Positions 26,824 through 32,389 of a stretch of DNA of 64,000 nucleotides are shown here, one piece after another. The notes under the pieces were generated by a model. The model did no database searches. It was not told where the DNA came from and worked only from the letters and a program-made list of their open reading frames with translations. The stretch covers positions 30,139 through 94,138 of the forward strand of contig JBFISM010000001.1 of the NCBI GenBank assembly GCA_041608535.1, given 5' to 3'. The stretch comes from Acidimicrobiia bacterium (lineage in GTDB: Bacteria; Actinomycetota; Acidimicrobiia; Spongiisociales; UBA5794). The first letter of the stretch is position 1; each line of letters starts with the position of its first letter. Both the position numbers and the translations under genes were made by a program.

Positions 26824-28308
26824 ATGAGTGAGGGTGGCGTGCTGAGCAAGCTCGTGGACCGCGACTTGCTGCGCAGCGACGGATACATCGACGGCACCTG
26901 GGAGCCCGCCGATTTTGGAGACCGCTTCGACGTGGTCGACCCTGCTACCGGCGATGTCATTGCGGCCGTGGCAGACATGGGGACGAGCGAGACGAGCCGG
27001 GCCATAGCGGCTGCGGAGAGGGCGCTGTCCCCCTGGGCCGCCCTCACCGGCAAGCAGCGCTCGTCGATCCTCCGCCGCTGGTACGAGCTCATGGTGGACC
27101 ATGCCGACGACCTGGGTCTGATCGTGACCGCCGAGATGGGCAAACCCCTCGCCGAGGGACGTGGCGAAGTGGTCTTCGGAGCCAACTACGTGGAGTGGTT
27201 CGCCGAGGAGGCAAAACGCGCCTACGGCCAGGTGATCCCGCAGCATGACCCCAACCTGCGCCTGGTGGTCATCAAGCAGCCGATCGGCGTGGTTGCGGCC
27301 ATAACGCCGTGGAACTTCCCGTCGTCGACGATGGCGAGAAAGGTGGCCCCAGCTCTCGCCGCCGGCTGCACGGTCGTCGCCAAACCCGCACAGGACACTC
27401 CGCTGTCGTCGCTGGCGCTCGCCGAACTGGCGGGACGAGCTGGTATTCCCCCGGGCGTGTTCAACATCGTGACCGCCCTCGATCCTCGCGAGATCGGGGC
27501 GGAGCTCACCTCCAACCCGGCCGTCAAGAAGATCTCTTTCACCGGGAGCACCCCAGTGGGCAAGCTGCTCATGCGCCAGGGTGCCGACACCGTCAAGAAG
27601 GTTGGCTTGGAGCTCGGCGGCAACGCTCCGTTCATCGTCTTCGACGACGCCGACGTCGAGCAGGCCGTGCCCCAGGCGATCATCGCCAAGTACCGCAACG
27701 GCGGGCAGACCTGCATCTGCGCCAACCGCGTCTTCGTCCAGGACGGTATCTACGACGAGTTCGTCGAGGGCTTCACGGCAGCCGCGAGCCGCCTCCGCGT
27801 CGGACCGGGGGTGTCGACGGCGCCCGACATCGGCCCGCTCATCAACCGGGCGGCGCTGGACAAAGTGACTCGCCTCGTCGAGGACGCCGTGTCGCGAGGT
27901 GCGACGGTCGACCTGGGCGGGTCGCTTCACCAGCTGGGGGGCACCTTCTACCAGCCGACGGTGGTCACGGATGTCACCGCCGACATGCCGATCGCCACCG
28001 AGGAGGTGTTCGGCCCCGTGGCGACGATCTTTCGCTTCGGTAGCGACGACGAGGTGATCGAACTGGCCAACGACACTCCGTACGGTCTGGCTGCGTACTT
28101 CTTCGCCCGCGACGTGGGGCGGATCTGGCGCGTCGGTGAGGCGCTTCAGTACGGCATGGTGGGGATCAACACCGGGTTGCTCATGACCGAGGTGGCGCCA
28201 TTCGGCGGCATCAAGGAATCGGGTATCGGCCGCGAGGGGGCCCACGAGGGTCTCGAGGAGTTCCTCGAGACCAAGTACCTGGCAATGGGTGGAATCGCCT
28301 CAGGGTGA
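26824..28308 (+). CDS. gabD: NAD(P)-dependent succinate-semialdehyde dehydrogenase
   Basis: ALDH superfamily: GGNAP/ELGG region, catalytic Cys in QTCICANRVFV, Glu in LELGG; 494 aa from MSEGG. Confidence 0.8.
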   Translation: MSEGGVLSKLVDRDLLRSDGYIDGTWEPADFGDRFDVVDPATGDVIAAVADMGTSETSRAIAAAERALSPWAALTGKQRSSILRRWYELMVDHADDLGLIVTAEMGKPLAEGRGEVVFGANYVEWFAEEAKRAYGQVIPQHDPNLRLVVIKQPIGVVAAITPWNFPSSTMARKVAPALAAGCTVVAKPAQDTPLSSLALAELAGRAGIPPGVFNIVTALDPREIGAELTSNPAVKKISFTGSTPVGKLLMRQGADTVKKVGLELGGNAPFIVFDDADVEQAVPQAIIAKYRNGGQTCICANRVFVQDGIYDEFVEGFTAAASRLRVGPGVSTAPDIGPLINRAALDKVTRLVEDAVSRGATVDLGGSLHQLGGTFYQPTVVTDVTADMPIATEEVFGPVATIFRFGSDDEVIELANDTPYGLAAYFFARDVGRIWRVGEALQYGMVGINTGLLMTEVAPFGGIKESGIGREGAHEGLEEFLETKYLAMGGIASG

Positions 28309-28338
28309 GTCGCCCCCCACCGGTCACCCATGGAGCCG

Positions 28339-29616
28339 TCATGGGGGTCGAGGCTGGGTAGTGACGGTTTGTCCCAACTTGGTGGTCCAGTGGTGGGTGC
28401 CGTCGGGGAGGCGGGTGTAGGTCCAGCCGTGCTGGTGACGGACGCAATGGTCGTGTCGGCAGAGCGGCGCCATGTCGTCGGGGTTGGTGACACCGGTTGT
28501 GGCGTATGGCGTGGTGTGGTCGAGGTCGGAGCCGATGGCCGGCATGCGGCATCCGGGGAACACACAGGTGCGGTGGCGGGTTTGGATGCGGCGTCGTTGC
28601 GTGAGGGTGGGGCGCCGCCGGGTGGCACCGGTCCCGATGGCATCGCCTGTTGCTGGGTCGGTGATGGTGAAGCGCCATTCGGCATCGGGAGAGTCGCCGG
28701 CGATCTGCCGGGCGATGTCGGCGATGACCGGGCCGTAGCCACCCAAGTCACCACATCGGTCGTCGAGTTCCGCCAGGGTGGCCAAATCCACCCGGAGATC
28801 GATCACCCCACCGCGATCTCTCCCGGTGCCGGTAGTCGACTTGTTCGGTGTGGACGAGTGTCCCTCGAGGAGATCCAAGAACACGTCGGCTCGGAGTTGG
28901 TCGATCGTTCGGGTCTCATCGTGGCGGCGCAGAGACTGCGCGATTCTGTTGATGCGGTCTCGGATACGAGCTACTCGATCCGGGGGCAGATCCCTCCCTG
29001 CGAGATGCACTGTGCCGTCTGGTGATGGGGTGGTCTCGACCCGTCGATCATGGAGGTCGGTGTGGTAGCGGTCCTTGGCATCGTCGGGGTTGGCCTCACA
29101 ACAGAGACGCCGTAACCGGGCACTGATCTGGCCTGTTGTCATCTCGGCGGCGTCGTCGAGGATCTGCGCAACCACCGCTTGCGCTTCGGTCGGCTGCAAA
29201 TGCCCAACGCCGTACATGATGGCTCCGGCGCGTCGCCGATCGATCCGCCCTGCGTGTAACGCGGCCAACACCTCGGGGTGCTCGCTGCCCAAGGCGTCTG
29301 CCATGGTCAGCTCTGCTTCAGCGGCGCGACGCGTGAGGTGTAGCGCCACCCTGATCTCCGCAACCGCCCCCTCACTCGCCGCCGTTGGATTGCGGTCTTC
29401 TGCGGCTACTGCGTCGGCGATGGCGATCATCTGTTCGTACATCTGCGCTTGATGGAACGCAACCTGCCGAGCGTGGTGCTGCAGCAGAGTGACGTGGTCC
29501 AGACCGGTGCGAGGGGTCAGTCCTGACAGCACGATCCCCAAGAACGGCCCCGGTCGCATCGCATCGAGCATCTCTCGGTCGAAGACGTCTGCCGTTGTTT
29601 CTATCGTGTCGAACAT
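28339..29616 (-). CDS. DUF222 + HNH endonuclease domain protein (REP13E12-like family)
   Basis: C-terminal HNH Cys/His cluster (CVFPGC...DLDHTTPY...CRHDHCVRH); start at MFDTIETTADV. Confidence 0.8.
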   Translation of the reverse strand: MFDTIETTADVFDREMLDAMRPGPFLGIVLSGLTPRTGLDHVTLLQHHARQVAFHQAQMYEQMIAIADAVAAEDRNPTAASEGAVAEIRVALHLTRRAAEAELTMADALGSEHPEVLAALHAGRIDRRRAGAIMYGVGHLQPTEAQAVVAQILDDAAEMTTGQISARLRRLCCEANPDDAKDRYHTDLHDRRVETTPSPDGTVHLAGRDLPPDRVARIRDRINRIAQSLRRHDETRTIDQLRADVFLDLLEGHSSTPNKSTTGTGRDRGGVIDLRVDLATLAELDDRCGDLGGYGPVIADIARQIAGDSPDAEWRFTITDPATGDAIGTGATRRRPTLTQRRRIQTRHRTCVFPGCRMPAIGSDLDHTTPYATTGVTNPDDMAPLCRHDHCVRHQHGWTYTRLPDGTHHWTTKLGQTVTTQPRPP

Positions 29617-29639
29617 ACGTTCGTATCGTATCGAACGGG

Positions 29640-30065
29640 TATGACACGAAACCCCCACGGCACACGACAACCGCGAAAGGGGCATCTCGCTTCACAAATC
29701 GCCACAGCTTTGCCAGCCACACCACCCCGCCCCAACGCCCACCAACCCCGACACGCCCTGGCCCACGCCCCCTCGTCGCCGGCACCACGAACCCGGCCAG
29801 GGAAACCCCCACCTACCCGTAACGGCCCCCCAAGCGCCTCCTCCATTCGCCGCACCGCCACCCAGCCCCAGTCCCTCCAACCAAGTCGAGCACCCCAGCC
29901 GTCGCCACCCACACCACCCAACCCCGACACGCCCCGGCCGACCCCGCATGCCTCCTTCGCCGGCCATACCACCCAGCGACCCACGTCCACCACCCTTCAC
30001 GCCCCAAGGCCCACTCCCCCTTTCGCCAGCACCACCGGCGGGAACCCCAGCAACGTCCCATGAAT
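29640..30065. repeat. C-rich/G-poor low-complexity non-coding region with imperfect ~50-nt direct repeats
   Basis: repeat cores cccaccaaccccgacacgccctggcc (29739..29764) and caccacccaaccccgacacgccccggcc (29902..29929); many C3-5 runs on plus strand (G-runs on minus); ORF 29641..30063 is Pro-rich with low GC3 and judged non-coding. Confidence 0.6.
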
Positions 30066-30093
30066 CGGACGGCAACAGGTCGGCCGCAAGAAG

Positions 30094-30123
30094 TTGACAA
30101 GGAAACACAACCATTCGTAACGT
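30094..30123 (+). promoter_or_regulatory. putative promoter of DeoR gene (TTGACA-N18-TAACGT), near-leaderless
   Basis: consensus -35 TTGACA at 30094..30099, -10-like TAACGT at 30118..30123, ATG 8 nt downstream. Confidence 0.35.
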
Positions 30124-30130
30124 CCCGGCG

Positions 30131-30934
30131 ATGGAGGAGGCGATTCCAGCCGAATTGCGGCGCGACCGGATGCTCTCTCTCGTACGGGAACGCGAGTTCA
30201 TGAGAGTCTCGGACCTCAGCTCCATCTTCGGGATCTCCGAAGTGACCGTGCGCGCCGATCTCGCCGTCCTGGCCGACCACGACCTCATCCAGCGGGTGCA
30301 CGGCGGTGCGATCGTGCGGGATCCGGAGTTCCGACGAGAGAGGTCGTTCGAGGAGTCACTCGACGAGTTCTGGGCGGAGAAGGCCGGAATCGGAAGGTAT
30401 GCGGCAGGCACGGTCCACTCCGGCGAAACGATCATCCTCGATGTGGGCACGTCGACGACGGCGCTGGCTCGCGCCCTCGTGCGGCGTACCGACCTGCAGG
30501 ACCTCACCGTGTTCACGTCGAGTCTCACGATTGCGCTCGAGCTGGAGCCCGCCATACCCAGGATCAGCGTCGTGATCACCGGCGGGACCTTGCGCCCGTT
30601 GCAGCATTCGCTGGTCGACCCGATGGCGGGCTACGTTTTCGACAACATCCATGCTTCCGTCGCCTTCATCGGCTGCAACGGGATCCACCCGCGTTCGGGT
30701 GTCACCAACGTGAACCTGCCGGAGGCCGAGATGAAGCGGAAGATGGTGGAGTCGGCGGCACGAACCGTGGTGGTCGCCGACGGTTCCAAACTGGGGCACA
30801 TCAGTGTCGTCAAGATCGCCGATCTCGCCGATGTCGACCAGCTCATCACCGGACCGTCGGCACCCCCAGAGGTCGTCGACCAGCTCGGCGACGCCGGGGT
30901 GTCCATCGAGATTGCCGAGCGAGCGAGCCGCTGA
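30131..30934 (+). CDS. DeoR/GlpR family transcriptional regulator
   Basis: N-terminal HTH (RVSDLSSIFGISEVTVRADL), C-terminal sugar-phosphate-binding DeoR-C domain; 267 aa. Confidence 0.85.
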   Translation: MEEAIPAELRRDRMLSLVREREFMRVSDLSSIFGISEVTVRADLAVLADHDLIQRVHGGAIVRDPEFRRERSFEESLDEFWAEKAGIGRYAAGTVHSGETIILDVGTSTTALARALVRRTDLQDLTVFTSSLTIALELEPAIPRISVVITGGTLRPLQHSLVDPMAGYVFDNIHASVAFIGCNGIHPRSGVTNVNLPEAEMKRKMVESAARTVVVADGSKLGHISVVKIADLADVDQLITGPSAPPEVVDQLGDAGVSIEIAERASR

Positions 30935-30985
30935 CGGCGTTCCGGATCCGGCTCGCCAACCCACCAACGAGAAGGAGACATCAAC

Positions 30986-32389
30986 GTGAAAAGACTGCTG
31001 ATGCTGCTGCTGGCATTGAGCCTCGTCGCAGCAGCCTGTGGAGGAGACGACGGCGGAGGGGACGCGACTGCGGCCCCGGAACCCGGGGCCACCACTGCCG
31101 CACCGAGCGACGACGGCGATGCCGACGACACGACGGCTGCACCCGACACCACTACCCCACCGAGCGACGACGGACAAACCGGCGATGAGGTCAATCTGCG
31201 CTGGATGACCCGGCCGGACAATCCGGAAGAGGCCGCTGTGTACGGCGAGATCTCGGATCAACTCAATGACAGCCTCGAAGGCATCACGCTGACGTACGAA
31301 CCCGGCTCCAACGAGGGCGAGGGGTACCAGCAGACGCTGCTGACCAACCTCTCCGCCGGCACCGCCCCGGACGTCTTCTGGATTCCGGGAACCGACATCG
31401 CAGACTTTGCGTCGCGTGGGGTGATTCTCGATCTGCGCGAATTCGCAGATGCGTCCGGTCACAGCGATGACGACTTCTACCCGGGGCCCATGGCCCATCT
31501 GACGACGGATCTGGAAACCGGCCAGCCGGGTAACGCGCTGTGGGGCCTCCCCCGCGACGTGTCGACGTTCGCCCTGTACGTCAACAAGGATCTCATCGCC
31601 GAAGCCGGCGTTCCCGACCCGCTGGAGCTCGAAGCGACCGGCGAGTGGGACTGGGATGCGTTCAACGAGGTCGTGACCGGGGTCGCCGATCTTGGTGGCG
31701 AGATCAAGGGCTACGGACAGAGCAACTGGTGGGGTCCGTTTGGTGCGTGGCTGAACGCTGCCGGCGGTGGGTTCTTCAATGAGGACCGGACCGCATGTGC
31801 ACTGGACAGCGACGAATCGATCGCCGGGCTCGCCGCATTGCGTGACCTGTATGCGACTGGAGCGACCATCCCCTACGGCGAGGAGCCGGAACCACCATTC
31901 CGCGCCGGCACGGTTGGGCTCTTCCAGAACGGGCGGTGGGCTACTCCCGGCATTCGCACTGTCGATTTCGACTGGGATGTGGTCGGACTGCCACAGGGGC
32001 CGGATGGGCCGGGCAACTGGCTCTTCTGGGGTGCCTACGTGGTGAACGCCACCACGGAGAACCCGGAGGCCGCTTGGGAGCTGGTCTCGGCGCTGACCCA
32101 GGCAGACGTCCAGGCACAGATATCCGAGCTGGGCGCCAACATCCCGAGCCGGGTGAGCGATGATGCGCTCCAGGCTTTCCTCGGCTTCACGCCTCCGGAG
32201 AACAACCAGGCCTTCCTCGACGGGCTGCAGCAGAATCCGACGACGGAGGGTCCGCTGTGGGCAGGGAACTGGCCCGAGTTCTCCAACTTGATGGGCACCG
32301 AAGTGCAGGCCGTGGTCACCGGGGAGCGCGACATCGCCGACTACCAGACAAACATCTGCTCCGAGACGGCGCCGGCGTTCGAGGGCTGA
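30986..32389 (+). CDS. sugar ABC transporter substrate-binding lipoprotein (family 1 SBP)
   Basis: lipobox LVAAACGG, Asp/Thr-rich linker, SBP_bac_1-like body; 467 aa. Confidence 0.85.
   Translation: MKRLLMLLLALSLVAAACGGDDGGGDATAAPEPGATTAAPSDDGDADDTTAAPDTTTPPSDDGQTGDEVNLRWMTRPDNPEEAAVYGEISDQLNDSLEGITLTYEPGSNEGEGYQQTLLTNLSAGTAPDVFWIPGTDIADFASRGVILDLREFADASGHSDDDFYPGPMAHLTTDLETGQPGNALWGLPRDVSTFALYVNKDLIAEAGVPDPLELEATGEWDWDAFNEVVTGVADLGGEIKGYGQSNWWGPFGAWLNAAGGGFFNEDRTACALDSDESIAGLAALRDLYATGATIPYGEEPEPPFRAGTVGLFQNGRWATPGIRTVDFDWDVVGLPQGPDGPGNWLFWGAYVVNATTENPEAAWELVSALTQADVQAQISELGANIPSRVSDDALQAFLGFTPPENNQAFLDGLQQNPTTEGPLWAGNWPEFSNLMGTEVQAVVTGERDIADYQTNICSETAPAFEG

Follow-up and report, generated by a model that had tools for sequence, protein, structure and literature searches.

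The intergenic DNA described here is, as far as sequence comparison reaches, lineage-specific orphan DNA of ~400 nt between two putative divergent promoters; it is non-coding, and its most conspicuous property, an excess of C over G on the plus strand, is confirmed as real and far beyond chance. We read it, with about even confidence, as a spacer born of duplication at a lineage-specific junction, whose effect, if it has any, would be a rut-like insulation.

Setting and composition of the tract

All coordinates are positions in the window, the 64,000-nt stretch of contig JBFISM010000001.1 (assembly GCA_041608535.1) that was analysed. The host is an uncultured actinobacterium (Acidimicrobiia). 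The C-rich, G-poor and T-poor tract occupies positions 29644–30077 of the plus strand, delimited as an unbroken run of 78-nt windows in which the C/G ratio exceeds 2 and reaches a maximum of 4.6. It lies in a gap of 514 nt between two divergent genes: on the minus strand, an HNH/DUF222 gene (28339–29616), which encodes 425 aa according to the public assemblies and is assigned to DUF222 by Pfam; on the plus strand, a gene for a DeoR-family regulator (30131–30934), the first of a sugar ABC transporter operon. On the far side of the HNH gene, an aldehyde dehydrogenase (ALDH) gene stops at 28292, where reading on the plus strand runs antisense into the HNH gene, and no terminator-like site was found 3′ of the ALDH gene before this antisense entry. 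A terminator-like hairpin followed by a T-run was called on the minus strand just upstream of the HNH promoter (29652–29679), a weak call for which 0.9 such sites are expected by chance. The 64-kb window contains no tRNA genes, and a tRNA-linked integration site was rejected on this ground.

The plus strand of the tract is ~52% C, 18% G and 9% T, and the 426 bases between 29640 and 30065 comprise 220 C, 93 A, 75 G and 38 T. Its GC skew, taken over windows of 400 nt, reaches −0.50, compared with a mean of −0.03 (sd 0.07) over the 64 kb, a departure of more than 6 sd; all 15 of the most negative GC-skew windows overlap the tract. Runs with C/G above 2 do occur elsewhere in the 64 kb, at lengths of up to ~150 nt and with a maximum of 3.2 (78-nt windows). 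The C-rich, G-depleted region recognized by the initial annotation is, by this measure, the site of the most extreme GC skew in the 64 kb.

The tract was recovered in 10 independent assemblies (three NCBI MAGs and seven Logan assemblies, from different runs) with the same flanks and 99.7–99.9% identity, and is therefore no assembly artefact. Four of the 10 contigs begin inside it, indicating that assemblers struggle there. Across the ten assemblies, the 396 nt compared in the tract hold 8 variant positions, a 1-nt insertion included, or 20 per kb, and the flanks hold 21 in 7359 nt, or 2.9 per kb, so that variants are ~7 times denser in the tract (Fisher p = 7e-5); no variant falls in the DeoR promoter (45 nt) or in the 73 nt that precede the HNH gene. 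Six of the eight tract variants come from one assembly, L002, alone, and some of them may be assembly errors in difficult sequence. The tract is without sign of purifying selection and drifts quickly within the species.

Degenerate repeats at a lineage-specific junction

The imperfect direct repeats reported earlier for this region are present, and they belong to a more extensive pattern of six units and a ~100-nt repeat. A 22-nt core (CCAACCCCGACACGCCCYGGCC) occurs exactly twice on the plus strand, at 29742–29763 (CCAACCCCGACACGCCCTGGCC) and at 29918–29939 (CCAACCCCGACACGCCCCGGCC), with 0.01 matches expected by chance, and, in extended form, the match covers 38 nt with 82% identity. Two longer copies, A (29708–29808) and B (29955–30048), give the highest-scoring local alignment within the tract, at 74% identity over 105 columns; its score of 69 lies 9 sd above the 27.4 ± 4.6 obtained in 500 dinucleotide shuffles of the two halves. 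An anchor of the form yTTCGCCrGC..ACCACC recurs at 29708, 29774, 29900, 29955 and 30021, with a looser copy at 29845, and splits the tract into six degenerate units of 55–72 nt that run head-to-tail, all in one orientation, with a mean column identity of 58%. The first unit, U1 (29708–29772), carries the anchor CTTTGCCAGCCACACCACC and is followed by U2 (29773–29844), U3 (29845–29899), U4 (29900–29954), which lacks the middle of the unit, and U5 (29955–30020); U6 (30021–30075), the last and most diverged, merges into the native DNA upstream of DeoR.

This pattern marks the tract as something that arose by local duplication in several rounds and has since diverged, with no clean tandem array, and Tandem Repeats Finder reported no repeat in it because the units are too diverged. 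Duplication alone does not explain the extreme C content, since the less repeated parts of the tract are also C-rich. Two other repeat architectures were considered and discarded. A CRISPR array was rejected because the anchors are degenerate, with 1–3 mismatches in 19 nt, and because the ‘spacers’ are alike in composition, two of them being the same sequence; a diversity-generating retroelement was rejected because the differences between the 38-nt copies are not confined to A positions and because a reverse transcriptase is missing from the neighbourhood. In architecture, the tract recalls MIRU/VNTR-type minisatellites, which are tandem repeats in actinobacterial intergenic regions. Like these, it appears to be built of head-to-tail units of ~50–100 nt in one orientation, between the genes of a high-GC actinobacterium. 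Unlike them, its units are only ~58% alike by column and escape Tandem Repeats Finder, its copy number is identical in the seven full-length strain copies, among which point changes and one 1-nt insertion are the sole differences, and its unit has no dispersed copies in the 64-kb window or in the genome and metagenome collections.

A repeat family with further members, as had been envisaged, did not emerge from the window or from any collection searched. Searching the 64-kb window by nhmmer with the unit alignment returned no other copy, and short-word blastn, run on the remainder of the window and on every fetched locus, returned only words of 12–17 nt. Neither blastn of the tract against plasmids and phages nor an exact 22-mer scan of viral contigs gave a match. 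The same exact scan gave one match in 185,579 species-representative genomes and two in JGI metagenomes; all three sit in ordinary coding sequence with no excess of C and are therefore attributed to chance.

Comparison with other loci, which extends either within one species or to relatives at ≤80% identity, places the tract at a junction peculiar to this lineage. Orthologues of DeoR (78–80% identity) in three other Acidimicrobiia-like genomes have upstream gaps of 79, 123 and 114 nt and different upstream genes, with neither an HNH gene nor a C-rich tract, and the homology of these relatives with the window begins only at ~30085. On the other side, the nearest homologue of the HNH protein is only 58% identical, so that the HNH copy is isolated and apparently single; no relatives of the protein were found in viral contigs. 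Three HNH homologue loci have upstream regions of 110–165 nt without a skewed tract, and a general appendage of HNH/DUF222 genes was rejected on the strength of these short regions. The sequence common to the HNH homologues covers only ~45–70 nt upstream of the ATG, where they share GTGTCATA...GATACG...CGTATG, and it ends by about 29650–29685. In a search for the empty site through ALDH orthologues, synteny with one locus (L026) ended at 28292, and the neighbour there is unrelated; since synteny ends right after ALDH, lineage specificity extends to the entire ALDH / HNH–tract / DeoR junction.

The DUF222-HNH, or REP13E12, sequences are given as repeated elements of mycobacteria in a passage of PMC10589994 that cites Gordon et al. 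1999. The tract adjoins a gene of this family, in keeping with the earlier suggestion that it might border a repeat element. As in REP13E12 / DUF222-HNH elements, the adjoining gene encodes a DUF222 protein and is inserted at a lineage-specific position; unlike in those elements, the tract is not part of the sequence that the family shares, and the HNH copy appears to be single. In the history that we favour, the tract would have grown as a C-rich unit of ~60–100 nt was duplicated locally (in tandem) time and again, and the HNH/DUF222 cassette would have taken up a position upstream of the native promoter of DeoR, with the tract at the junction.

Putative flanking promoters and possible transcription into the tract

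The promoters on both sides were assigned by consensus, a generic sigma-70 scan having reported none. The putative DeoR promoter (30094–30123, plus strand) consists of TTGACA, 18 nt and TAACGT, ends 7 nt before the ATG and is conserved in relatives: in a four-genome alignment, TTGAC(A/G) is followed by 17–18 nt, TAAnnT, 6–7 nt and then ATGGAGGAG. Roughly one in four transcripts in mycobacteria is leaderless with a TANNNT −10 element (PMC6448022). Because the TANNNT-type −10 of DeoR ends 6–7 nt before the start codon, its mRNA is probably leaderless, and, if the promoter assignment holds, the tract therefore lies outside the DeoR transcript. The proposal that the tract forms an unusually long 5′ UTR of DeoR is accordingly not supported, given a conserved promoter 7 nt from the ATG and relatives that do without the tract.

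At the opposite end, the heptamer TATCGTA (29624–29630) combines overlapping −10-like hexamers on both strands: TACGAT on the minus strand for the HNH gene, and TATCGT on the plus strand directed into the tract. TACGAT sits 8 nt before the HNH ATG, so that the HNH gene also looks leaderless, with a predicted leader of ~2 nt. For bacterial bidirectional promoters with start sites 18 bp apart, a reciprocal pairing of −7T and −11A has been described (PMC10268837); when compared with these, the TATCGT/TACGAT pair has −7T and −11A in the same reciprocal pairing, a bidirectional-promoter geometry. Both genes look leaderless, and the tract would then belong to neither mRNA. A scan of both strands from 29631 to 30117 found no TANNNT hexamer where ~3 are expected from composition, a mildly notable absence.

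The tract is neither a structured nor a known RNA. An Rfam search of 28000–31500, with E-values of up to 10 admitted, left the tract without a match and yielded only a chance snoRNA-like match inside the DeoR gene. The plus-strand RNA folds at −76.7 kcal/mol for 396 nt, more weakly than the shuffle mean (z = +1.36), with 92 of 100 shuffles folding at least as well, and the fold of the G-rich minus-strand RNA is no different from what composition leads one to expect (z = +0.11). The structured C-rich RNA suggested by the initial annotation finds no support on either count, there being no Rfam match and a fold no better than that of shuffles.

Loading of Rho at rut sites takes place on untranslated, unstructured RNA in which C exceeds G, over at least 70–80 nt, and RhoTermPredict applies a threshold of C/G > 1 (PMC6407284). 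Over the 434 nt of the tract, C/G is 2.3–4.6, and YC dimers number 32 per 100 nt, compared with 17 in the whole window. The tract is thus like rut regions in being C-rich, G-poor, unstructured, YC-dense and untranslated, and agrees with them on the three criteria that can be tested on a sequence (PMC6407284). It differs from them in extending over ~430 nt rather than ~80 nt, in being made of degenerate repeats and in being known from its sequence alone. From this likeness, we infer that Rho-dependent termination may take place in the tract. A plus-strand transcript entering it would be ~430 nt of untranslated, unstructured, C-rich and G-poor RNA; such a transcript could arise by read-through from the ALDH gene, which lacks an intrinsic terminator, or from TATCGT, the mirror-image −10 of the HNH promoter. 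Rho would load on the tract RNA, and transcription would end before the DeoR promoter and the sugar operon. The quality that composition gives to the plus-strand RNA is the sole property of the tract that would act without further assumption. The composition may nonetheless be unrelated to Rho, because the tract is more than five times the minimal rut length, beyond what termination needs. To our knowledge, termination in Acidimicrobiia has not been studied so far, and the tract would offer a clean natural test piece for Rho loading: long, untranslated, unstructured and set between two probably leaderless promoters.

A duplication-born spacer might also have no effect of any kind. As wholly inert filler, never usefully transcribed, the tract would be what is left, between two promoters, of a C-rich unit that expanded locally and is decaying, a reading that we consider somewhat unlikely. 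It accounts well for a variant density ~7 times that of the flanks, indel included, for the absence of the tract from all relatives compared, for the lack of any −10-like hexamer inside it, and for short motifs that all occur at the frequency expected from composition, with no structural signal. It accounts less well for a composition that has no equal in the 64 kb and stays even along more than 400 nt, which should be eroded by neutral decay where the genome has 66% GC and balanced strands, and for the plus-strand transcription, some of which probably enters the tract because the ALDH gene is without a terminator. On present evidence, the tract matters little, as one more lineage-specific, repeat-derived piece of intergenic DNA beside a selfish HNH/DUF222 gene.

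G-run motifs, an inverted match and the open frame

A different kind of effect, at the level of DNA, would follow if the G-rich minus strand folded into G-quadruplexes (G4) upstream of the HNH promoter or behind that of DeoR, or the tract into an i-motif element, tuning the HNH and/or DeoR promoter or causing local instability; we regard this as distinctly unlikely. With a canonical G4 or i-motif defined as four runs of at least 3 G (C) and loops of 1–7 nt, three motifs of this type lie on the minus strand, at 29725–29772 (a C-run motif on the plus strand), 29908–29945 and 29993–30020, so that the G4 potential ascribed to the minus strand holds at the level of sequence. The tract contains 3 of the 6 canonical four-run C3+ motifs of the 64-kb window and 96 of its 196 G4Hunter windows with |score| ≥ 1.5, about half; it is located between two divergent promoters, and four of the ten assemblies break inside it. 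Against this stands the number of C3+ runs in the tract, 28, compared with 27.5 ± 2.7 in shuffles of the tract: since the count equals the shuffle expectation, the C runs follow from composition. CCTCC, similarly, occurs 4 times with 2.7 expected. Composition alone accounts for the G4/i-motif-type runs and for the CCUCC words, and there is no sign of selection for C runs or for anti-Shine-Dalgarno words. Moreover, the tract is not conserved in any relative that has the same promoters, and the promoters of those relatives function without it. Like the promoter-proximal G4 motifs of GC-rich bacteria, the tract bears canonical G3+ four-run motifs on one strand upstream of a promoter; unlike them, its motif density is explained by composition, and it is not conserved with the promoter in relatives. 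The earlier idea of G4 structures on the template of the HNH gene is weakened: motifs of the G4 type are present, but the G runs are no commoner than expected from composition and are upstream of the promoter and on the coding strand, not on the HNH template.

The tract also contains a match to the beginning of the DeoR gene. Positions 29831–29851 of the plus strand are the reverse complement of the DeoR start region, 30126–30145, with one mismatch and one indel (AAGCGCCTCCTCCATTCGCCG versus CGGCGATGGAGGAGGCGATT). This 21-nt inverted match scores 30, compared with 17.4 ± 2.5 in shuffles, 0 of 300 of which reach it, and the repeat-unit anchor TTCGCCGG forms part of it; a second match, of 12/13 nt, lies at 29951–29963. 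The 21-nt match may record how the tract arose, the DeoR 5′ end having been duplicated in inverted orientation and the duplicate amplified; another possibility is that it permits RNA pairing. A direct-orientation copy of the DeoR promoter in the tract was rejected, its match being not above shuffles (93 of 300 reach it).

If pairing were the explanation, the tract would give rise to a regulatory C-rich RNA whose CCUCC segments pair with G-rich start regions, especially the putatively leaderless 5′ end of DeoR, and repress DeoR, which we judge very unlikely. Besides the 21-nt inverted match and the second match of 12/13 nt, a possible plus-strand −10 at 29624–29629 speaks in its favour. However, the start of the unrelated ALDH gene pairs as strongly in silico, the predicted pairing with the tract being −44.9 kcal/mol for the ALDH start versus −42.3 kcal/mol for the DeoR start; CCTCC is not enriched; and in the second site the L002 assembly has CCGCC in place of CCTCC, through the variant 29953 T>G. 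Such an RNA would also be without a defined terminator or 3′ end, without conservation and without an Rfam match. The C-rich small RNAs known from other bacteria, 6C RNA and the RsaE/RoxS type, are conserved and present C-rich loops on stable hairpins. The tract resembles them in having C-rich segments that could pair with ribosome-binding regions rich in G and is unlike them in its lack of a hairpin scaffold, an Rfam match and conservation. A more elaborate version, with a truly remote chance of being correct, has the symmetric −10 of the HNH promoter firing a ~450-nt unstructured C-rich RNA that would silence or sponge G-rich starts through the 21-nt DeoR complement and the CCUCC segments. 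If true, the ~450-nt RNA would couple the selfish HNH cassette to the control of the neighbouring sugar operon.

That the tract instead encodes the Pro-rich protein of ORF 29641–30063, or is the decayed remains of a gene, either HNH or a former neighbour, has next to no chance of being right, in spite of an open frame of 140 codons and of short words that the core shares with HNH coding sequences. At a T content of 9%, few stop codons arise and long open frames are expected in all three plus-strand frames, so that the ORF carries no weight by itself. The C/G asymmetry, the long Pro-rich frames and the G4 clusters can all stem from one compositional cause and therefore do not qualify as independent signals, and the striking composition makes the tract look more special than the evidence allows. 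Searches by tblastn with the HNH protein and with the genes upstream of DeoR in relatives gave nothing significant in the region. A decayed inverted HNH fragment, an idea raised by word matches of 13–15 nt, was rejected on a best E of 0.05 in a 514-nt target, and a remnant of the relatives’ gene upstream of DeoR (DUF6937/6938, molybdopterin oxidoreductase) was rejected because tblastn found nothing in the tract.

The earlier description of the overlapping ORFs as non-coding is supported by several lines of evidence. A Pfam search of ORF 29641–30063 gave no match, and HMMER found no real homologue among 1.84 billion representative proteins; its sole match is borderline (E = 7e-4) and consists of 14 stretches in a low-complexity protein of 1005 residues. 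Public assemblies have no gene calls across the tract. The alternative expectation, a translated Pro-rich protein under conservation, finds no conserved homologue and a frame that is broken in one strain, the L002 assembly having a 1-nt frameshifting insertion inside the ORF. Finally, the GC content of the ORF at codon positions 1, 2 and 3 is 0.66/0.74/0.69, with no codon periodicity, compared with about 0.67/0.48/0.84 in the neighbouring genes, whose values span 0.66–0.69/0.45–0.52/0.74–0.86, and with 0.66/0.45/0.84 in DeoR.

Assembly breaks in the tract and its inverted match to the DeoR start

The tract, a C-rich, G-poor and repeat-built non-coding spacer (29644-30077, plus strand) between the HNH/DUF222 gene (28339-29616, minus strand) and the DeoR-family regulator gene (30131-30934, plus strand), is a recurrent point of assembly breakage. 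In four of the ten independent assemblies that carry it with the same flanks, the contig ends inside the tract, with left ends at window positions 29728 (L008), 29815 (L009), 29863 (L010) and 30030 (L007). In a fifth assembly, L002, 6 of its 17 differences are concentrated there. Taken together, the breaks and the clustered differences suggest either that the population hides variation in length or sequence at this site, or that DNA of this composition is poorly covered. A 21-nt inverted repeat, with one mismatch and one indel, links the tract (29831-29851) to the first codons of DeoR (30126-30145), with a score reached by none of 300 shuffles. This match may have been left by an inverted duplication of the 5' end of DeoR from which the repeat units arose.

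Promoters on either side of the tract

Four diverged genomes keep the DeoR promoter, TTGAC(A/G), 17-18 nt, TAAnnT, 6-7 nt, ATG: the window (30085-30133) and the loci of three DeoR orthologues of 78-80% identity (L011, 5920-6003; L012, 5900-6003; L013, 4880-4978). Given this conserved arrangement, with the -10 only 6-7 nt from the ATG, the DeoR mRNA is predicted to be leaderless. The words (A/T)TCGTAA(C/G) recur in the same region, one of them overlapping the -10, and are candidate operators for autoregulation.

On the opposite side, at 29612-29646, the HNH start is marked by a near-palindrome, TTCGTATCGTATCGAA, and by overlapping -10-like hexamers, TACGAT (minus strand) and TATCGT (plus strand), whose reciprocal -7T/-11A pairing matches the geometry of bidirectional promoters. 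The word GTGTCATA upstream of HNH is common to the HNH homologues in loci L019, L020 and L023. Directly upstream of the HNH promoter lies a terminator-like hairpin followed by TTTC (29652-29679, minus strand), statistically weak (one site found against 0.9 expected), that could shield the HNH cassette against incoming transcription. A similar GGGTTTT word occurs in L023 at the matching position.

The HNH gene and its junction with ALDH

The aldehyde dehydrogenase (ALDH) and HNH genes are convergent, their stops only 30 nt apart, and no terminator-like site was found between them (28293-28339). Compared with the closest relative at this locus (L026, 4584-4640), homology around ALDH stops at 28292, where L026 carries an unrelated convergent gene; position 28292 marks the far boundary of the junction that is specific to this lineage. 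The stretch 28200-28780 ranks second in the window for strand asymmetry, with a plus-strand GC skew of up to +0.31. In it the HNH/DUF222 gene has a C-rich coding strand over its 3' half, and across the gene as a whole the skew switches sign.
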